This document shows, piece by piece, positions 45,957 to 60,576 of a stretch of DNA of 60,576 bases. This DNA is from Candidatus Micrarchaeota archaeon (GTDB taxonomy: Archaea; Micrarchaeota; Micrarchaeia; Anstonellales; Bilamarchaeaceae): NCBI GenBank assembly GCA_038046765.1, contig JBBSVN010000008.1:1-60576 (forward strand), in the 5' to 3' direction. The notes under the pieces were generated by a model, which saw only the letters and a list, made by a program, of their open reading frames with translations, was not told the origin of the DNA and searched no databases. Within the stretch, counting starts at the first letter, position 1. Each line of letters starts with the position of its first letter. The position numbers were made by a program, and so were the translations under genes.

Positions 45957-46523
45957 ATGCAAAGTAAAAAAGGTTTTGTTTTCTCATTAGATTCATTTGT
46001 AGCATTTACCTTGTGTCTTGTTATAATCTATTCGTTAATTTTCTTTTCAAGTATCCCGAGCGGGTATTACGATACCTTAACTCAAGCTCATTTTCTAACT
46101 AAGGACACATTAAATGCATTAATCTCTACTAAATGTTCGTTCACAGAATGCACTGACAAATCTGTAAATGTGCTAGAACATATTGTATTTCGTTCCGCGC
46201 AAAAAGATGTTGCAATCCAGAACTTTATTGGAAGCAAAATACCAACTCAATTCGGCTACCGGTTTGAAATCTTAGGAGAAGCAGTAGTTTACGATAGCAG
46301 GGTCAACCCAAGTGATAATCACAAAAAAAACTCAGATAAATTATCTGTTTCTGCTTCAACAATTGTATTTGGCTACGGTACAAGAATTAATAACATTCAA
46401 AATCCAAACGTTTACAAAACCTGCAATGGTGGAAGAGAAAATTTATGTACAGATATTTCATCAAACCTTCCAAATCTGCCCCAGTTTGAAATAAAAACTG
46501 TAAAACTCACGGTGTATATATGA
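45957..46523 (+). CDS. Class III signal peptide (pilin-like) protein
   Basis: KKG|FVFSLD followed by a hydrophobic helix. Confidence 0.75.
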   Translation: MQSKKGFVFSLDSFVAFTLCLVIIYSLIFFSSIPSGYYDTLTQAHFLTKDTLNALISTKCSFTECTDKSVNVLEHIVFRSAQKDVAIQNFIGSKIPTQFGYRFEILGEAVVYDSRVNPSDNHKKNSDKLSVSASTIVFGYGTRINNIQNPNVYKTCNGGRENLCTDISSNLPNLPQFEIKTVKLTVYI

Positions 46524-48061
46524 AAAGAAACTCCAAAGGTTTTTTCTTTACCATCGTAATTTTCCTTTTGATTACTTACATTCTTAGTTCTACTTCAATA
46601 TGGGTAAAAACAGTGCAGGAAAGTGAGAAGAAGTTTTCTGATGAACTAAGAAAATCAAATTTGGAATTAATCGCATCGCAATTAAATGATTTGGAAATTA
46701 CAAAATTTTCGCTTTTATCTGTTCAAAATGCGCTCTTTGCACTTAATACACAAACTGCGGTTACTCCTGTTAAACAAGATCCATCTGATGAGTTTTATCA
46801 CGTAAATAATGCCATGATTCAGTTAATTGAAAATGGTTCTGCAACTTCTGATAATTTTGTACTAAGTCAGCAAGCGGTAAGCAGTGTTTCATCCAGTTCA
46901 TCATTTTCAGGATGGTTTAATCAGGTAAACACATCGATTTCTGGTCTTGGCTTTAGGATAAAATCATACAAACTAAACAATTTTAAAATAAATCAAAGCA
47001 GGATGGATAATATTAATTATTCATTTAACATTTCAGTAGTTATTGATGATCGGACAACCGAGCTTTCAATCGAACGGAATTATACTATAAATGGCACTGT
47101 GAATATTTCCGGATTTACTGACCCCGCAATTAATCGCTTAATTGTTCCATCTCCGAATGTAAAAGTTGAAAAACAATACTTCTTTTACGATGATTATAAT
47201 ACTCCTGCTGCAATCGCACCAAGGTCAATTTTAACTGCAAACGAAGGTCAGGGTTGGTTTTATGGACCACTAGTTTCTGTTACGAAAGCAAATACAATTG
47301 CAACACAAGATCGAAACAGATACATTTTGGTTGGTGGCTATCAACAGGTAATCTCGTTAGTTGGGCAAAGCGTTGATTATGCTCAATTTGGTGCGATCAT
47401 ACTTACAAGTTCGCCAACTCTTTCACAATCGGCTTGTAGCGGAAATTCTAATGAAGCAGATACATTAAATGCACTTAGTTTTAATTCGCTTTGTGCTGCA
47501 ACCGCAAGCGGGTCTTATGCTAAACCGTTTGCAGTCTCGCCAGGATTTGCAATTTCAAATATGCCAAGTTGTCCTGAAGGAAATTGCGTTATTTTTGTGT
47601 CATCACATAATCCGGTACAAGTGACTGCAAGTCCCGCCCTTAAACTTAATCCAGTAAGTTTCTACGATATGGAAGCAATTCGGGATTTTGCAATCTGCGG
47701 TTACTACACTAAAAATTCTAATTCACCCTCATTTTTACAACGAATGTTGGAAAGTCCGTACAGTAAAAAAAGCGATAATTTTGGGATTGAAACATTTATC
47801 GTTAGCAACTTTATAGGCGGAACAAGCGTTGGAAATATACAAGCAACTTCAATATATCCTGATAGTACAAGTAGGATTGACAAAGATATCTTCAATAGCG
47901 TTAGCGGATTTAAGATTCGTGGAATGCCTGGATGTAAAAACTTAGAAAGTTGTAGCTCGGCATCTCCAATAGGACACTTTAGTTTAAGTCCTGATGGTAT
48001 TTCAAGATATATATTAGCTAGTACACTCTCATGTAATTATGGAAACGCAAATTGTGGTTAA
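46520..48061 (+). CDS. Large class III signal peptide (minor pilin/adhesin-like) protein
   Basis: SKG|FFFTI followed by a hydrophobic helix; Cys-rich C-terminus. Confidence 0.7.
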   Translation: MKRNSKGFFFTIVIFLLITYILSSTSIWVKTVQESEKKFSDELRKSNLELIASQLNDLEITKFSLLSVQNALFALNTQTAVTPVKQDPSDEFYHVNNAMIQLIENGSATSDNFVLSQQAVSSVSSSSSFSGWFNQVNTSISGLGFRIKSYKLNNFKINQSRMDNINYSFNISVVIDDRTTELSIERNYTINGTVNISGFTDPAINRLIVPSPNVKVEKQYFFYDDYNTPAAIAPRSILTANEGQGWFYGPLVSVTKANTIATQDRNRYILVGGYQQVISLVGQSVDYAQFGAIILTSSPTLSQSACSGNSNEADTLNALSFNSLCAATASGSYAKPFAVSPGFAISNMPSCPEGNCVIFVSSHNPVQVTASPALKLNPVSFYDMEAIRDFAICGYYTKNSNSPSFLQRMLESPYSKKSDNFGIETFIVSNFIGGTSVGNIQATSIYPDSTSRIDKDIFNSVSGFKIRGMPGCKNLESCSSASPIGHFSLSPDGISRYILASTLSCNYGNANCG

Positions 48062-48502
48062 ATGATTCACGCAAAAGATTTTCCAGGAAAGACACAAAAA
48101 GGTCAGTCAAGCCTAGAGCTATTAATTACTCTTGGTGTTGTCCTTGCGTTCTCCTTACCCGTAGTATTTCTTTTACTTACTGTATCTCAATTTGGTTTTG
48201 AAGATACATCAAAATTCCAGGCAGATGCAACTGCGATCAAAATTGCAGACACAATAAATGAGGTATATGCTAAACAGTCTTATGCAAAAACAACGCTTTT
48301 AGTTAATCTTCCAGCAAATACAAAGGAAATAAAAATAAATGGTCAGGAAGTGATTGTTGAAATAAACTCGGCTTCTGGAGTGTATCAGGCCGCTGCTCCA
48401 ATATTTGCTGATGCAAGAGACGTAACAATCGAAGGTAAGCGAGGGCCGGTTGTATTTTTAATAAACATTGATTCTTCAGGAAAGGTGCTTGTAAATGGAT
48501 AG
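48062..48502 (+). CDS. Class III signal peptide pilin-like protein
   Basis: KG|QSSLE followed by a hydrophobic helix. Confidence 0.8.
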   Translation: MIHAKDFPGKTQKGQSSLELLITLGVVLAFSLPVVFLLLTVSQFGFEDTSKFQADATAIKIADTINEVYAKQSYAKTTLLVNLPANTKEIKINGQEVIVEINSASGVYQAAAPIFADARDVTIEGKRGPVVFLINIDSSGKVLVNG

Positions 48503-49121
48503 TTCTAACTTAGCCCTGGGCAATGGGCGATGTGCCGTAAAGAGCAAAAAGCCTTTACTAGCTCGTCAAGTGCAAGCACTTGTCGATACAGTGAGCCACG
48601 CGATACGAAGAAGTGCAAAACTCAAGACTCAAAACAGGTTGCCCACAGCTCAAAGCTCAAAGCTCAAGGCCCATCACAAAGGCCAAGTTGCAACTGAATT
48701 CCTTATGTATACCGGCATGTTCATACTAATGGTCGTTATTGCTTTTGTCGCTGTTTCATATATTCAATCTGCAGAATTGCCTGCTAGGCAAGCTAATCTA
48801 ATAAAACAAACTGGAGAAGAATTTTCAAGTGCAATAAATTTAGCTGTAACTGCCGGAACAGGTTTTAAATATTCATTTACTTTCCCAAAATCGATCCTTG
48901 AACGCGATTACCTTATGTTGTTTGATACAAGCAATTCAAGATTAATCATTGTTTCTGGAGAAGATCCTCAAACATTTACCTATGCATATCCATTAAATGC
49001 TTATAATTATCGGCTTGAAGGGTGCATCGCAAGCAATAATAAGTTGCAGGCAAGTCAGTGTAAAAATACGCTCGAACTTTATAATGATGGTAATACTTTA
49101 ACAATAAGACAACCTAGTTGA
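48495..49121 (+). CDS. Class III signal peptide pilin-like protein with repeat-derived long leader
   Basis: KG|QVATE after a 63-aa leader; AGGTG RBS before the ATG at 48495. Confidence 0.75.
   Translation: MDSSNLALGNGRCAVKSKKPLLARQVQALVDTVSHAIRRSAKLKTQNRLPTAQSSKLKAHHKGQVATEFLMYTGMFILMVVIAFVAVSYIQSAELPARQANLIKQTGEEFSSAINLAVTAGTGFKYSFTFPKSILERDYLMLFDTSNSRLIIVSGEDPQTFTYAYPLNAYNYRLEGCIASNNKLQASQCKNTLELYNDGNTLTIRQPS
48511..48673. repeat. Heptamer inverted repeat element, copy 6, inside a CDS
   Basis: tagccct-gggcaat-gggcgat-gtgcc ... gcccaca-gctcaaa-gctcaaa-gctcaag-gccca. Confidence 0.8.
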
Positions 49122-49125
49122 TTTA

Positions 49126-49665
49126 ATGAAAAACACTCGCAAAATAACTAAAGAAAAATGCTATAAAGGTCAATACTTTAGTTTTGACGCAATAATTGCA
49201 ACCGTAATTTTTGTCATCGCACTAGTTTCATTGCTTTCATATTGGAACGCTACAAAAAACAGTTTTGAGTTACAATCAAATGAATTATCTCAAGAGGCAT
49301 TTAGAGTGAGCAATGTTTTACTTTCGCCAGGATATCCTGCTAATTCAGTTTGCAGTTCTCAATCGCAAGTCGGTTTTGGGAAATCAATTTCAGATAAGGT
49401 TCTGATGCTTTCTAAAATCGAGTGTGTAAGGTCACTTGCATCGGATACGGTTAAGCGTTCACTTTCAACTGGTTTTGGTGTTAGCGTTTATATGGATGAT
49501 AAACTTGTTTCTGGAGAAGATTTAGCAACTGGTGCTATTTCAAGCAGGTATTCAAACATTGAGCGTGTGCGAAGAGTTGTTTCTGTTTTAGATGATTTTT
49601 ATCCCGCTAGTCCTTTTTATAATACTGCGAATGTAAGCGCGATAGATATTTATGTTTATAGGTAA
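49126..49665 (+). CDS. Class III signal peptide pilin-like protein
   Basis: KG|QYFSFD followed by a hydrophobic helix. Confidence 0.75.
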   Translation: MKNTRKITKEKCYKGQYFSFDAIIATVIFVIALVSLLSYWNATKNSFELQSNELSQEAFRVSNVLLSPGYPANSVCSSQSQVGFGKSISDKVLMLSKIECVRSLASDTVKRSLSTGFGVSVYMDDKLVSGEDLATGAISSRYSNIERVRRVVSVLDDFYPASPFYNTANVSAIDIYVYR

Positions 49666-49822
49666 GTTCTCAATTTTATTTCTCGGTTTATTATTCCTTA
49701 CGTAAAAACGTAAGAAAAAGGCTCATTTTCTTACGGAATTAGGTAAGACTTTGGATTCTTGGATATCTGTTACTTTTTCTAGTAAAAGATGTATTTATAA
49801 ATACTTTTGTAGTAACGTAATT

Positions 49823-51379
49823 ATGAATCGGTTAGTTGATCCAAAACAGGGTGCAAAGTCTCAACGAATTACGGGTGAATTTCCTAAAGTCAGTCCTGCC
49901 CTTGACCAATCACAAAGGAAGGTTACTGTGAATGGGAAATCTTACACCGTAGTCCGACAAATAGCAGACACTAATTTTTCAGTTGTTTCACTGGTAGAAG
50001 ACCAAGCAGGCATGAAAAAGGTAGCAAAAGAAATAAAACTTAGTGAAAAAGGATTTAAGGCACATGAACTAGCAGAAAGAGAAGTTACTATTCTTAAAAA
50101 TCTCACACACCCAAACATCGTTAAATTAGAAGATTCTCAAATCGGTTCAGACATGGTAAATCCAATACTTTTATTGGAATATTTAGATGGTCAAACGATA
50201 TCTGAACTAGTTAAAAAAGGGGAACGAATTTCAACAGATAAATTTATTGCATTTTTAGATCAGATGGCAAGTGCAATAGAACATGCACATTCTATGCACC
50301 CTCCGATAATTCACAGGGATATTAAACCAAATAACATAATGGGGGTAGAAGACCGTTATGTGTTACTGGACTGGGGAACGGTTGAAAAAGGAGGAAGTGG
50401 AGGAAATACAACTGTATTTGGAATAGATAATTTTGGTTATATTGACCCTGAACTTCTGCAAGGTCGAAGGGCAACAGTAAAAAGTGATATTTATTCCCTT
50501 GCAGCAGTTTCTTTCTATTTGTTAACTCACATTGAACCAGACCAAAGAAAAGAAGTTCTAAAAGGCGAACTTGGGGATTTAAAACCTGAAGTAAGAACTG
50601 TTTTAGCTAATTCATTAGAACATGATTCAGATAAACGACCTTACGAATCAATTAAGCAATTTAAGGTTGCTTTATCCGCAGCTTTAGGTGAAACTAAAAT
50701 ACACGGAATAAAGATAATTTTGGGAAAGGATAAAACGGAATTTATAGGTCCAAGAGATGTTTTGACAGTTTTTGGTGTAAAAAAACAGATAAAAATTATT
50801 GATGCTGTTTTTGGGTTTGTTGGTACGATGATCGGACTTTATGCTGTAAATGATCTGCGAGCTGCAATCTCTGGTTTCATACTTGGATTATGTGCAAGAA
50901 CTTTAATTGAATTTGTTGGTAAGGCTTATACTTTTACATATCATGCTATTGATAATTCAGATGCTCAAATTAGAAGATTTGTGAAATTATTTACAAATAA
51001 ATTAAAATTAGATTTACCAGAAAAACAAAAACTTCTTGCAGGCAAAACCCAAGACGCGGAAATTCCAGATTCAGTAAAGAGCAGAGAAGCCTTTACTGTC
51101 TCTCCAGCTTCTATCGAATCTGTCAACTGGTCAAAACTAGACTTTGCAAGTGAGGTCATAGTTTTAGATGGAAAATTCACAGCACAGCAGGCAATTGAAG
51201 AAACAAGAAAACAGGACATGATTATTTTACCCGACAAAGTTTTCCAGGTTATTTTCGAAAATCCTAATTTAAGAGAAAAGTACAAATCAGTATTTCCATG
51301 CTGGGTCGCAAAGAACGAAGATCCTCCTGGGGCATATTCTGGCCTTTTGGTTAGCGTTGGTGGCTACTACAATGGTTGA
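49823..51379 (+). CDS. Hanks-type Ser/Thr protein kinase with TM segments and C-terminal domain
   Basis: VAKE, E..ILKNL.HPNIV, HRDIKPNN, DWG, YIDPE, SDIYSL; two hydrophobic helices; TTTATAA upstream of ATG 49823. Confidence 0.9.
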   Translation: MNRLVDPKQGAKSQRITGEFPKVSPALDQSQRKVTVNGKSYTVVRQIADTNFSVVSLVEDQAGMKKVAKEIKLSEKGFKAHELAEREVTILKNLTHPNIVKLEDSQIGSDMVNPILLLEYLDGQTISELVKKGERISTDKFIAFLDQMASAIEHAHSMHPPIIHRDIKPNNIMGVEDRYVLLDWGTVEKGGSGGNTTVFGIDNFGYIDPELLQGRRATVKSDIYSLAAVSFYLLTHIEPDQRKEVLKGELGDLKPEVRTVLANSLEHDSDKRPYESIKQFKVALSAALGETKIHGIKIILGKDKTEFIGPRDVLTVFGVKKQIKIIDAVFGFVGTMIGLYAVNDLRAAISGFILGLCARTLIEFVGKAYTFTYHAIDNSDAQIRRFVKLFTNKLKLDLPEKQKLLAGKTQDAEIPDSVKSREAFTVSPASIESVNWSKLDFASEVIVLDGKFTAQQAIEETRKQDMIILPDKVFQVIFENPNLREKYKSVFPCWVAKNEDPPGAYSGLLVSVGGYYNG

Positions 51380-51400
51380 TTCCTTTTTGGGGATACCAAT

Positions 51401-51937
51401 ATGTTTGATTTTTTCGGGGTAGCATGCATCTCACGCGAAACATACGAAAAATTAAAAGTAAAAGAAACAATCGAAGAAAATCAAGTTGAAGAACTTGCCA
51501 GATATGCCGCAAAGAAATTTATTTATTTTACAGCACACTCTGCTGCTCAAATAAACTTTGAATATGAATTTAGAGAAATTGAAAAAAAGTTACTCTTAAA
51601 AAAAGATTGGAGCCAGGCAATACAAACATTTTCACGTGCTGAAGGTCATCCAATACTTAATGAACGGGGTATTCTTAAAGCTACCAATTATCTTACTCCA
51701 AGTGAACTATCAAAACTTAATAATTTTTCTTTGATCTGGCTACTAGATGATATAAAAAATTTCTTACTTACTAGCACAAATGATCCGCGTCTTTTAACCC
51801 ATGTTACTTTGGTTGATAAAACAGCACATCCTTTTACGGATCAACAAAAATATGAATTACTAATGGAGTTTTATTCTGACCCAAGTATAATAAGAAAATT
51901 CTTAGAAGCTGCAAAAGAATTTAATGAACAATCCTAA
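51401..51937 (+). CDS. In-frame continuation of the kinase ORF beyond a TGA (or a separate hypothetical protein)
   Basis: Same frame as the kinase; only the TGA at 51377-51379 separates them. Confidence 0.55.
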   Translation: MFDFFGVACISRETYEKLKVKETIEENQVEELARYAAKKFIYFTAHSAAQINFEYEFREIEKKLLLKKDWSQAIQTFSRAEGHPILNERGILKATNYLTPSELSKLNNFSLIWLLDDIKNFLLTSTNDPRLLTHVTLVDKTAHPFTDQQKYELLMEFYSDPSIIRKFLEAAKEFNEQS

Positions 51938-51993
51938 CCTTGGCAAACCCTGGCAGAGACTACTTTGCCAATGTCTGCCAGCATTACCTTTGT

Positions 51994-53337
51994 TTAAATT
52001 AATTCTCCAAATAAACTTCCGTAATTACTTTTAATAATTTTAACTTTACAAAATTCGCCTAGTTCTCCAGTAAAATCCTTGACTACGACCTGTTTGTAAT
52101 TAATGTTCCTACCTGTGTAATCCTTGTTCTTTCCATCTTGCTTTTCGGTTATCAAAACTTCGTATTCTTGACCAACAAATCTCTCATTTTTCCTTTCAAC
52201 AATTTCTAAAACAAGTTTAGTTAAAAGTGCGCTTCTTCGCTTTACTTCTTTATTGTCGATTGCCTTTAGTAATGCTGCCTTTGTTCCTTTTCTAGATGAA
52301 AACTTTGAAATGTTTACAATATCAAGTTCAAGTTCTTTTATCATTTTATATGTATCTTCAAAATCCTCTTCTGTTTCAGTTGGGTAACCAACAATAATAT
52401 CTGTTGCAATCGTTACATCTGGACTTTCTTTTCTAATTGATTTTATAATTTCTATAAAATCAGCGACCGTATGGTCACGGTTCATTTCTTTGCAAACCTT
52501 TTCGCTACCGCTTTGAACTGGGACGTGTATAAATTTGTAAAACCGTTCGCCTTTAAGTTCGTTAATTATTTTATCCTTCATCCTCTGGATATGGTCTGGG
52601 TTTGCCATTCCAAGACGAACGTAAAATCTTTCTTTTGTGTGTTCGAGAAGATGATTCTTCTCGACATGGATCGAGACCGGCAAATTTCCTGGTCTGGGTA
52701 TATCTATATTATTTATTTTTTCCATTAGAAATCCTAAGTTAGTTTTAATATCTGCTCCATATGCTCCAGCATCCATGCTTGTCATTTGCACTTCTTTTGC
52801 ACCATGTTCTACTGCATGACGTATTGCATAAATTACGCCATCAACTGAAAAACTTCGAAGCCTTGGTCTTGCTAATTTAGTCTGGCAAAAATTACAAAAA
52901 CTTAAACATCCTTCGCTTATTGGTAAACGCAATATTGGCGCGCTAAAAAACTTCGGCAATCCTTCTTTTTTTAGTGAATCGCGAAATTCTAATGGTTCGT
53001 TCCTAAAAGCTGCATCAACTGCTAAATCAATTTTTGATATTGCACCCGCCCAGACGATTGGAGAAAAAGGTAAGTTCTTTCGTATTTTGGCAGTATTAAC
53101 GCTTAAGCATCCAGCCACAACTACCTTTTTTCCTTGCGTTTTAAGTTCGCGCATTTTTTGCAAGATTCGGCTTTCTGTTGCGCCTTTTACTGTGCACGTA
53201 TTAAGTATAATCAGTTCGCTATCGGTTTCACTCTGGCTTATCTCATATCCTTTTTCATAAAGGATTCCTTTCATCATGTCGCTATCTGCCTGGTTAAGAG
53301 TACAGCCATACGTTAGTATAAAAACAGATTTTTTCAT
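51994..53337 (-). CDS. mtaB: tRNA t6A methylthiotransferase (MtaB/CDKAL1-like) with a roughly 20-aa palindrome-encoded insert
   Basis: TYGC..N..DS, LNTCTV, EGCLSFCNFC, HVPVQSGS, TDIIVGYP.ET, TRAM domain. Confidence 0.9.
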   Translation of the reverse strand: MKKSVFILTYGCTLNQADSDMMKGILYEKGYEISQSETDSELIILNTCTVKGATESRILQKMRELKTQGKKVVVAGCLSVNTAKIRKNLPFSPIVWAGAISKIDLAVDAAFRNEPLEFRDSLKKEGLPKFFSAPILRLPISEGCLSFCNFCQTKLARPRLRSFSVDGVIYAIRHAVEHGAKEVQMTSMDAGAYGADIKTNLGFLMEKINNIDIPRPGNLPVSIHVEKNHLLEHTKERFYVRLGMANPDHIQRMKDKIINELKGERFYKFIHVPVQSGSEKVCKEMNRDHTVADFIEIIKSIRKESPDVTIATDIIVGYPTETEEDFEDTYKMIKELELDIVNISKFSSRKGTKAALLKAIDNKEVKRRSALLTKLVLEIVERKNERFVGQEYEVLITEKQDGKNKDYTGRNINYKQVVVKDFTGELGEFCKVKIIKSNYGSLFGELI

Positions 53338-57984: not shown

Positions 57985-60576
57985 ATGAATTATTCTAGAT
58001 TATTTTTCGGATTATTATTTTTGTTTGTAGTCTTAACTATAAATGTCTCTGCATTTGCAGATGGAACCAAATGGTTTGTTAATACAACTTCATGTTCTAG
58101 CTATGGAGCTAATTCTACAAATTCTAACGGAACTCTTGTTGCAGGTATTGCCATGGCAGCAGCAAGAGGATTGCCTGGAGATACTATTATGGTATGTAAT
58201 GAATCTGGATTTTATATTGGTGGAGCTAACATTAATTTTTCAATAAATTTAGTTGGTATTGGTCGACTTGAAACAGTAAATATATCTAGTCATCCTAACG
58301 AAGGAAACTCTGTATTTAACATAACTGCAATAAACGTAAACATAACTAATTTAACAATTAATTCTTCAGCAGTTCCAGGTATTATTGTAGATGGTGCATT
58401 TACAGCTGCAAACGGTGCAAGTATTAACGATTCGAACATAAGTTCAAGAAACGGTATCCTTGTTGCAATAAATTTTACTGAGAACACAACTATTGGAGGA
58501 CTCTTTTTAAATCAAACAACATCCAAAGCGATATTTGCAAATAACAGTAACATTACTAAAGTTTTCAATACCAAGATATTCAACATTTCAGGTTCTGGTA
58601 TCGAGCTTGAAAAATCGAACAACAGTTATTTTGATAATAATACTATTAGTCACGCTACATCTTCAGCAGGTATCAATTTTACTGGTCTTAGCAAAAATAA
58701 TACTGTATCTAACAATACAATATTCAATACTACTACTGGTGTGTTTGTATTTGGACCAGGCACTAACTACACACTTTTCAATAATACCATATACAATAAT
58801 ACAATCGCCATAAATTACTTATACGCAGAAAACCTTACACTTGCAGCAAACAAGCTGTTTAATCAAAGTTCATCTGCCTTTAACGCTAACGGTTTAAACA
58901 ACAGTAATATATCTAACAATATAATTGCCAATCAGACTTACGGTATCTACCTGACCTTTGGAAGTTATAATCTTATAAATAACAACTCGATTTTTAATAC
59001 TAGTAACGACGGAATTACGCTCACTTTCAATGGTGCTCCTGTAGGTTCATCTAACGCCATTACCAATAATACTATATCTAGATTTGGACTAGCTGCTGCA
59101 GGTATTGGTATTTCAAACATACTTAGTACGAATAATATTTCCAATAACGTTGTAAATGAGTCAAGGACAATTAACTCATACGGTATAGCAACATACAGTT
59201 CTTCCAATTCTCTAATTAATAACACAATAATTAACATATCCTATTACGGCATTTATGCATCAGATGATAATGGTGCTGGTTCAAAAATTAGCGAATTTGA
59301 AAACAATACTATATATGATACTGAAGTTGGTTTGTTCGTAGACGGTACTACTGGTGCAAATAATGATAATAATATCACAAACAATACTGTATTCAATAGT
59401 ACATACGGGCTGATTTTCTACGATACTTCAAGAAATAATATCTCAAGAAATACTGTGAGAGATAATCGACATGGTATTTTGATGAATCTAACTACTAGTA
59501 ACATCGGTACCAGTATGCGTATTTTTAATAATACTATAAGCAACAATACATTTACTGGACTTAATCTTACAAATTCCTGGAACATAACTATCTTTAACAA
59601 CATTATTACAAACGGTAACTTTGGTTTCTCAATAGGAGCTAATTCAAACGATAACAACATTACAAATAACAGTGCAACAAACAACAGCCAAGGATTTTTC
59701 TTTTTCAATAACAATAATAACACAGTAGTAAACAATACTGCAGCAAATAATACTATTGCTGGATTTAATTTCACTCTGTTCCTAAACTCAACAATTCAAA
59801 ATAACACAGTAATCAACAACACCAATGGTATGGTCTTTGACACTGCAATAAACAACACAATAAGGGACAATATGATTTTCAATAACAGCTATGGTGTTTA
59901 TGCAACAAACAGTTACAACAATACGTTCAAATACAACAACCTAATTAACCAAACAACCTTTGGTTTCTATCTTCAATCTACATCAAACAATAATACGATT
60001 ATAAACAACAATGCAACTAGCAACTGGAGTCTATCAATAAACAGTGTTGCTGGTTTCTACATTGGTGCTAGTTACAATAATACTCTTTACAATAATACTG
60101 CATCAATGGCACAAGGATTTATCCTTAACAATTCAGCCTTAGTTAATAACTTAACAAATAACACAGCAGTAAACAATACCTTTGCTGGGTTTAACCTAAC
60201 AACATCCAGTTCAAACGTAATTATAAATAACTTTGCTTATGGAAATGGATTCGGTTTATCAGTAGGAGCTAATGCAAATAACAATAACATCACAAATAAC
60301 AGTGCATACAATAACTCGCAAGGCCTGTTCTTCTTTAATAACAACAACAATAGCATAGCAAACAATACTGCAAGCAACAATACCTTCTTGGGTATGAACT
60401 TTACCTCTGTATTTAATTCATCAATAGAAAATAATACTGCCACAAACAACACGAACTATGGTCTTGGCTTTAGTTCCAGCACAAACAATACTATTGCAAG
60501 AACTACCTTGATCAATAACAGTTATGGTATCTACATAACAGGAGGAGAAAACAATACTTTCTCAAACAATAACTTG
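57985..60576 (+). CDS. Large secreted parallel beta-helix (NosD/PbH1-like) surface glycoprotein, 3'-partial
   Basis: Not in the ORF track because it runs off the window end; MNYSRLFFGLLFLFVVLTINVSA signal; NNTI.NN..G repeats; dense N-x-S/T sequons. Confidence 0.85.
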   Translation, partial: MNYSRLFFGLLFLFVVLTINVSAFADGTKWFVNTTSCSSYGANSTNSNGTLVAGIAMAAARGLPGDTIMVCNESGFYIGGANINFSINLVGIGRLETVNISSHPNEGNSVFNITAINVNITNLTINSSAVPGIIVDGAFTAANGASINDSNISSRNGILVAINFTENTTIGGLFLNQTTSKAIFANNSNITKVFNTKIFNISGSGIELEKSNNSYFDNNTISHATSSAGINFTGLSKNNTVSNNTIFNTTTGVFVFGPGTNYTLFNNTIYNNTIAINYLYAENLTLAANKLFNQSSSAFNANGLNNSNISNNIIANQTYGIYLTFGSYNLINNNSIFNTSNDGITLTFNGAPVGSSNAITNNTISRFGLAAAGIGISNILSTNNISNNVVNESRTINSYGIATYSSSNSLINNTIINISYYGIYASDDNGAGSKISEFENNTIYDTEVGLFVDGTTGANNDNNITNNTVFNSTYGLIFYDTSRNNISRNTVRDNRHGILMNLTTSNIGTSMRIFNNTISNNTFTGLNLTNSWNITIFNNIITNGNFGFSIGANSNDNNITNNSATNNSQGFFFFNNNNNTVVNNTAANNTIAGFNFTLFLNSTIQNNTVINNTNGMVFDTAINNTIRDNMIFNNSYGVYATNSYNNTFKYNNLINQTTFGFYLQSTSNNNTIINNNATSNWSLSINSVAGFYIGASYNNTLYNNTASMAQGFILNNSALVNNLTNNTAVNNTFAGFNLTTSSSNVIINNFAYGNGFGLSVGANANNNNITNNSAYNNSQGLFFFNNNNNSIANNTASNNTFLGMNFTSVFNSSIENNTATNNTNYGLGFSSSTNNTIARTTLINNSYGIYITGGENNTFSNNNL

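Follow-up and report, generated by a model that had tools for sequence, protein, structure and literature searches.

A membrane kinase gene of a Micrarchaeota archaeon, most likely a former target of a diversity-generating retroelement later cut by a stop codon

Contig JBBSVN010000008.1 of a Candidatus Micrarchaeota archaeon (GenBank assembly GCA_038046765.1) carries, within the 60,576-nucleotide stretch analyzed here (positions 1 to 60,576, hereafter the window), a gene for a serine/threonine protein kinase that ends at a TGA codon behind which the same reading frame continues. The original prediction held that this gene encodes a diversified receptor kinase, i.e. a membrane kinase with a compact C-type lectin (CLec) variable domain that is a remote target of a diversity-generating retroelement (DGR), here caught as a nonsense variant. 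DGRs make an error-prone copy of a template RNA, the errors falling at its adenines, and this copy then replaces a variable region, for remote targets in trans. The gene and its features, with sizes in amino acids (aa), are listed below in window coordinates; ORF stands for open reading frame, SD for Shine-Dalgarno, and IMH for initiation of mutagenic homing.

49792..49803, plus strand: TATA-box-like element TATTTATAAATA, putative in function, ending 19 bases upstream of the ATG
49823..51379, plus strand: Ser/Thr kinase ORF of 518 aa, from ATG 49823 to the stop TGA at 51377-51379
49943..50578, plus strand: protein kinase domain PF00069, aa 41-252 (E 1.4e-31, 110 bits against a cut-off of 31.7)
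50789..50923, plus strand: two adjacent hydrophobic segments, aa 323-344 and 347-367, a predicted membrane hairpin
51125..51307, plus strand: N-terminal part of an AvpA-type CLec domain (NWSKLD...FPCWV), profile positions 4-69, E 2e-9
51308..51334, plus strand: nine-residue linker replacing 59 profile positions, a net loss of ~50 aa
51353..51418, plus strand: putative former variable region of 22 codons (7 NNC and 11 NNT, G+C 0.41), matching no template
51377..51379, plus strand: in-frame TGA inside that region
51389..51403, plus strand: SD-like GGGGAT, six bases, then ATG 51401, a hint of a possible restart for a 178-aa ORF
51415..51420, plus strand: IMH-like CGGGGT, as in template-matched targets (the templates read CGAAAT)
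51416..51463, plus strand: closing strand and helix (GVACIS...ETYEKLKVK), severed from the kinase by the stop
51464..51937, plus strand: 157-codon tail with no counterpart in any paralogue or relative

The kinase part appears intact. An ORF program lists an upstream TTG start; database records give 518 aa from ATG 49823, and protein records P0005 and P0006 have this same length. The segments VAKE, AERE, HRDIKPNN, DWG, IDPE, and SDIY are present, which we take to be the corresponding kinase motifs. With its catalytic Lys, Glu, HRD..N, and D.G, the protein is a Hanks-type Ser/Thr kinase by its motifs; the glycine-rich loop is degenerate in it and in its paralogues alike. As assessed by a simple hydropathy scan, the window kinase and two other kinases of the same genome, kinA and kinB, each have two hydrophobic segments (Kyte-Doolittle maxima 1.62/1.70, 1.63/2.25, and 2.24/1.88, respectively) and not the odd number of membrane passes expected of an extracellular sensor. 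Because the segments are adjacent, the chain would return, placing the C-terminal domain on the kinase's side of the membrane. The receptor kinase originally proposed, insofar as it implies a binding domain outside the cell, is therefore doubtful.

The kinase ORF and ORF 51401-51937 share a frame, and the read-through sequence agrees with that quoted in the original prediction. It aligns collinearly with kinB over aa 67-547, without a break at the stop (25% identity, pairwise E 7e-39). A profile of the C-terminal domains of four paralogues, built without the window sequence, matches on both sides of the stop, with E 2e-9 before it and E 0.004 after it, and the window domain is 35-42% identical to the four. 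By these matches, the gene belongs to the AvpA-type CLec variable-protein family. The family is widespread, its profile finding matches in 61 of 401 genomes across the phylum and in 33 of 75 within the taxonomic family.

The CLec fold that had been proposed is borne out on the model of an intact paralogue (pLDDT, a model confidence score, 92.5 from 25 aligned relatives). Among 48,161 solved chains searched with VIA, its best match is AvpA, a DGR protein of Nanoarchaeota (5IOO; Z 8.4, root-mean-square deviation 3.5, 135 aligned residues, 8% identity); C-type lectin domains and TaqVP rank next, with Z 5-6.4. A Z of 8.4 is modest on VIA's own scale, and the lower-ranked list is almost all one fold. 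A Foldseek search with the same model gave no match at E ≤ 0.001. The window read-through model reaches a pLDDT of 45 from five alignment rows, as against the 25 of the paralogue, which makes it an unfair test of foldability; a fold search with it found nothing at Z ≥ 5. An alignment-based sequence search of the PDB returned one unrelated weak match, Pfam has no named family for any of the variable domains, and an ESM Atlas search gave unnamed clusters only, at 0.91.

The window copy is indeed compact, as had been noted, since nine residues stand in place of 59 profile positions. According to the paralogue model, the part at 51125..51307 comprises beta1, alpha1, alpha2, and the start of the next strand, and what was lost amounts to the greater part of one strand plus four more, and with them GWY...GIP...R, the best-conserved segment of the family. 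In AvpA, beta1 and beta5 pair to close the fold (PMC5006420), and compact C-type lectin domains lack a long loop (PMC9630629); the lost segment may correspond either to core strands, following the AvpA labelling of the former, or to the long loop of the latter. The stop precedes GVACIS, the strand that by analogy with AvpA would pair with the first one to close the fold, so a folded CLec domain is not expected in the 518-aa product. The terminal branch of the window domain is also long, 0.87 vs 0.16-0.30 for the four paralogues, in a tree where its clade with the paralogues has weak support (82/67).

DGRs do exist in this DPANN host, as the original prediction supposed, and it was also correct that neither a template repeat nor a reverse transcriptase (RT) lies inside the window; both sit elsewhere in the genome. 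In the host assembly (1.52 Mb, 20 contigs, 89.7% complete), contig C4 carries a pair of DGR cassettes in the order target, template, RT, with two RVT_1 matches above cut-off adjoining the templates, TR1 and TR2. No match to PF22296 (Avd) was found anywhere in the assembly, which a divergent Avd could escape, and the ORF lists of the two cassettes (L008 and L009) show no Avd gene. The other loci of this genome that enter the argument, in coordinates of the respective locus, are as follows.

L003 211-2136, plus strand: kinA, an intact membrane kinase gene with an adenine-only TR2 match
L004 226-2025, minus strand: kinB, an intact membrane kinase gene with an adenine-only TR2 match
L007 1747-2622, plus strand: remote copy of the TR1 target, with a three-codon insertion vs TR1 in its variable region
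L001 1914-1960 and L002 1926-1965, on C4 of the host genome (G000): AG-repeat frameshift sites in the host DGR RTs

Remote targeting of kinases, which the original prediction had assumed for the window gene, is shown in this genome by kinA and kinB. Both are Ser/Thr kinases, each carrying a pair of hydrophobic segments and, at the C terminus, a variable domain. The 70-base core of TR2 (27 adenines and 43 other bases) matches three genes, none of which departs from it at any of the 43 other bases. Of the 27 adenines, 13 are changed in the target of its own cassette, 14 in kinA (contig C1), and 15 in kinB, which lies 65 kb from TR2. By this defining comparison with the template, kinA and kinB are remote DGR targets. 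TR1 matches its own target and the remote copy on C1 (L007). Two stand-alone paralogues of the kinase-type domain, C1:2147 and C4:193926, match neither TR1 nor TR2 and keep a G+C-rich NNC patch.

Two side observations concern these loci. Protein record P0011 joins the 5' part of the TR1 cassette target to the 3' part of the L007 copy, a junction that could reflect either gene conversion or a chimeric assembly. Four further stand-alone paralogues (L005 148-789, L006 186-827, L047 501-1292, and L048 483-1292) have no matching template in the assembly, and two of them retain similarity to templates of relatives.

No such template match was found for the window gene. The patch does have the codon pattern that had drawn attention to it, as 18 of the 21 codons from 51353 to 51415 are NNY (binomial P = 4e-4 for one window at the genome NNY rate of 0.483). 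Equally dense NNY runs occur in 893 of 305,610 windows and in 100 of 739 long ORFs of the genome, so the run is weak evidence alone, and it is homology that makes the patch real. The short-word BLASTn proposed as a check for a template repeat returned nothing, and all other scans failed likewise: adenine-wildcard ungapped scans with four sub-ranges of the patch, genome-wide, and a DNA search of the own genome each found the self-match only, and an AAC-rich scan of the assembly gave no third template-like stretch. In gapped comparisons with 15 templates (two own, 13 from relatives), the best score of the patch was 17.0, vs a shuffle mean of 18.9 with 23 of 30 shuffles scoring as high. The same scoring gave 121.6 for kinA, 113.6 for kinB, and 53.5 and 32.7 for the two stand-alone paralogues (0/30 shuffles each). 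Since these paralogues resemble templates from outside the assembly, a further template existed or exists.

The composition of the patch points the same way. It has 7 NNC and 11 NNT codons, as against 57 and 17 in four regions that match a template (Fisher P = 0.003), and it does not differ significantly from the rest of the gene (P = 0.11). Its G+C content is 0.41 vs 0.64-0.67 in those regions. No G+C hairpin follows the patch (-3.2 kcal/mol vs -9.6 to -12.2 in three cassette-type targets), although the hairpin of template-matched kinB is weak too (-4.4). The hexamer CGGGGT, which also encodes Gly-Val, is retained. With no template match and with codons drifted from the NNC pattern, the claim that the window gene is still being diversified is not upheld. 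Judged by its sequence, it would be a former DGR target.

The stop itself appears genuine. The frame stays open for 185 codons past it, to 51937, making it the single stop in 704 codons. Among the four runs of the same study whose contigs were compared, which drop rare variants, one covers the patch: a contig of another sample (run X3; 3,248 bases, depth 9.5) spans 50546-52100 and differs from the window at one position, 51069, outside the patch. Patch variation is thus nil in this one covering contig set. Record P0005 differs from the window kinase at two upstream residues, one of which hits the otherwise invariant Trp436 and may be a sequencing error, and has the same end residue. Because the X3 contig and P0005 show the same stop, the TGA is not an artefact of one assembly.

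The original prediction derived the TGA from AGA by adenine mutagenesis, a route that is unavailable at this position in every template that could be read in register. Counting back from the IMH codon, 12 of the 15 templates could be read in register (two lack IMH* in the stored piece and one is out of register). In all 12, the codon at the TGA position starts with C (CAG in six, CGG in three, CGC in two, and CGT in one), and in 11 of the 12 the preceding codon is AGG. Adenine mutagenesis acting on such codons cannot yield TGA there. An ordinary transition would be a simpler source, from a CGA- or CGG-derived codon or from TGG to TGA. A genome-wide recoding of TGA was considered and rejected: TGA ends 91 of 729 long ORFs in the genome, with a median of 6.5 codons to the next stop, and is an ordinary stop here.

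Behind the severed end of the domain, the tail begins where two paralogues have TAA and the window reads GAA. Its codon score (0.318) is that of genes (0.298 ± 0.095; off-frame -0.077). No relative of the tail was found in protein, genome, or Atlas searches, which distant relatives could escape. A query of domain plus tail was matched by 0 of 60 relatives, pattern scans of genome and metagenome contigs left 0 of 84 and 0 of 199 candidate stretches confirmed, and protein searches with the window gene returned only this organism's own records.

Relatives of the kinase itself are few. The kinase part is matched in five of 98 genomes of the family, at 29-32% identity, and kinB in three of 400 genomes of the class. 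The related kinases L080, L081, L082, and L084, of other genomes, either lack a CLec domain or have different C-terminal parts; L080, L082, and L084 have no CLec domain at all. Three genes of other genomes carry the domain as well.

L083 298-2226, minus strand: intact kinase - helices - CLec gene in genome G014, of another genus
L097 546-1961, minus strand: fusion of the variable domain in genome G150
L096 1574-2929, minus strand: fusion of the variable domain in genome G171

The L083 domain, as the window copy, is without the GWY...GIP segment, and G014, a single contig, has no RT match; released, trimmed copies can therefore persist. As side observations, the variable domain is joined to C-terminal repeats in G150, presumably ankyrin-like to judge from their sequence, and stands behind a long N-terminal region in G171. 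On contig C70 of G150 (L065 and L098), there are three tandem family matches with stops inside (one TAG, one TGA, and two TGA), which are candidate nonsense alleles.

We consider it most likely that the window gene left DGR control long ago and was later cut by an ordinary point mutation. An ancestral gene of the form kinase - membrane hairpin - CLec would have been rewritten in trans by a DGR. The window copy would then have lost its template, whereupon the patch would have drifted to the A+T-rich codons of the genome and the domain would have shortened, and a 157-residue tail would have been gained where the paralogues stop. Finally, a recent transition would have created the stop; the intact frame of the tail suggests that either the stop is recent or the tail remains in use. 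Translation would yield a 518-aa kinase that keeps its membrane anchor and ends in a CLec remnant lacking the closing strand. Since related kinases without a CLec domain exist, its kinase part may remain functional. In paralogues that are intact, the variable domain would sit next to the kinase on the cytoplasmic side, where it would select a ligand or substrate that is cytoplasmic or bound to the membrane.

Several points weigh against this view. The codon argument presumes no insertion or deletion between the stop and the IMH, an assumption on which patch length bears (22 codons in the window, 22-24 in four paralogues), and TR2 holds one AGA codon elsewhere that could give TGA. As the assembly is 89.7% complete, a template may be missing from it, and the IMH-like hexamer and the NNY codons remain in place. 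The invariance of the patch is weak evidence, with no positive control on kinA and kinB and with both RTs out of frame. The undamaged ancestor is postulated, no orthologue with an intact frame having been found. Lastly, the intact tail, its coding-like codons, and the SD-like site with its ATG would suit a working split.

Such a functional split after retirement, in which a 518-aa membrane kinase and a 178-aa protein are both kept by selection, is the strongest rival, and we regard it as possible though unlikely. It would account for the 185 open codons with coding-like usage, for the intact kinase motifs alongside relatives that lack the CLec domain, and for the presence of the stop in both haplotypes seen. 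GG.GAT is enriched before genes, preceding 40 of 729 long ORFs vs five control windows, and here stands six bases before the only early start codon. Yet the motif was spotted after the fact, and a recent stop explains the intact frame equally well. Moreover, the four paralogues run through the stop position unbroken, and the 178-aa ORF starts with 21 residues of the severed CLec domain, has no relative, and gives a poor Atlas model (pLDDT 0.38).

In both host RT genes, the frame is lost at a 14-base AG repeat, which lies between two conserved motifs. We looked at 32 RT loci (an order-level set including L018-L046 and L086), of which 30 could be scored. A poly-G, poly-C, or AG repeat lies at that position in 26 of the 30; the RT is out of frame in 23, all with the repeat, and in frame in seven, three with and four without it. 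Related loci in these counts are not independent of one another, and some of the frameshifts may be errors of repeat assembly. The pattern fits a candidate phase-variable on/off switch operating by slipped-strand mispairing, on which our literature search found no paper. Switched-off DGRs would leave even true targets static, which weakens the variation test on targets. A larger reading combines this switch with the split: a DGR, turned on and off by the slippery repeat in its RT, would hypermutate the cytoplasmic CLec tips of membrane-anchored kinases in trans. Copies would then be released and remodelled, and in the window copy the old variable region would have become a stop, a ribosome-binding site, and a start, giving two working genes. 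We offer it as speculative, and rate it slightly below the split taken by itself.

It is improbable that a third template, absent from the assembly, still rewrites the gene as a remote target and that the TGA is a nonsense product of adenine mutagenesis. Remote kinase targeting occurs in this genome, the assembly has room for a further template, the hexamer and the NNY pattern are kept, and an AAT-rich template would give NNT codons. However, the patch lacks similarity to 15 templates when even orphan paralogues keep some, its G+C content of 0.41 is low vs the 0.59-0.67 of targets and no hairpin follows it, TGA is unreachable at its position in 12 of 12 templates, and the patch is identical in a second sample and a second record. 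Read-through of the TGA, by recoding or as a leaky stop, into a 704-aa kinase with compact CLec domain and tail is less probable still: there is one stop in 704 codons and the lost segment may equal the long loop (PMC9630629, the mapping being ours), but genome-wide TGA closes 91 of 729 long ORFs, behind which the frame is not unusually open, and none of the 8,000 candidate records scored is 704 aa long. The least credible explanation is an error of assembly or sequencing, for although only one study covers the site, the same base is found in the second sample's contig (depth 9.5) and in P0005, which differs elsewhere.

A gene that left DGR control and decayed, as we propose for the window kinase, would most likely be of a kind already described. 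The portions of earlier studies on which we draw offer several parallels. Cyanobacterial DGR proteins (Vallota-Eastman et al. 2020, PMC7517822) likewise have a C-terminal CLec domain, alone or on a Ser/Thr kinase, and gene copies scattered over the genome that resemble the template to varying degrees; its authors propose that diversification is removed once a variant has been selected. Here, in contrast, the host is archaeal, the CLec domain is of the AvpA type by fold match, a membrane hairpin precedes it, and the window copy is shortened, tailed, and cut by a stop. The "partial DGRs" of the DUSEL4 Nanoarchaeota (Paul et al. 2015, PMC4372165) share targets far from the RT, which were read as fossils or remote targets, an xGGGGT/xGAAT IMH pair (TGGGGT/TGGAAT), and a GRA-loop hairpin inside the target gene, found here in three cassette-type targets. 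The difference is that one genome here shows both outcomes, with kinA and kinB template-exact and the window copy having neither template match nor hairpin.

AvpA (PDB 5IOO; Handa et al. 2016, PMC5006420) likewise has an internal variable region just before an IMH-encoded ...GV closing strand, whereas it is stand-alone and 8% identical to the paralogue, and the window copy lost ~50 residues and its closing strand. In Thiohalocapsa PB-PSB1 (Dore et al. 2024, PMC10907252), CLec targets also have transmembrane and kinase domains, and incomplete loci are diversified in trans; that host is bacterial and multicellular, and diversification there was shown from reads. Kinase-domain DGR targets also occur in the surveys PMC5758913 and PMC11661182. 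The accessible portions of PMC8144416 and PMC8867640 hold nothing on nonsense variants of DGR targets. Our literature search found no kinase DGR targets in Micrarchaeota or other DPANN archaea; Paul et al. 2017 and the survey supplements lay outside its scope, and we make no claim of priority.

One small genome thus holds a series of template matches that are exact (kinA and kinB), partial (two stand-alone paralogues), and absent (the window gene). This series lends support to the "diversify, then release" life cycle that has been proposed for DGR targets. It also presents a DPANN archaeon whose signalling kinases are targeted remotely by a DGR. Should the domain be cytoplasmic, the DGRs of these episymbionts would adjust signalling or sensing inside the cell and not attachment to the host.

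The host, with a 1.5-Mb DPANN genome, encodes at least eight Ser/Thr kinases (on contigs C1, C3, C4, C5, C6, C8, and C15). For the DnaG encoded near the window kinase, the best relatives are almost all from genomes labelled Micrarchaeota. Where a habitat is recorded, the samples containing the stretch are groundwater metagenomes; no RNA samples are listed among them, which has no bearing on expression.

Upstream of the kinase, the TATA-box-like element would fit an archaeal leaderless promoter, and a sigma-70 promoter scan of the window was at chance level (eight found, 8.5 expected). Directly upstream lies a five-gene run (45957-49665, plus strand), several members of which have a short N-terminal KG/KGQ motif followed by a hydrophobic stretch; we take it to resemble archaeal type IV pilin-like operons, and NCBIfam has no match for the four of its genes that were tested. 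Between run and kinase, a ten-pair hairpin with a T-run (49709-49735) is flagged as terminator-like on the minus strand (one found, 1.7 expected). At the contig end, an Asn-rich repeat gene (59587-60370, plus strand) holds AAC-rich stretches, which were caught by the template scan and set aside as not template-like. Downstream of the tail, an archaeal tRNA methylthiotransferase gene (TIGR01578, above cut-off) occupies 51994-53337 on the minus strand, and its match is broken into two parts, with ~25 residues near aa 205-230 that appear to be inserted.

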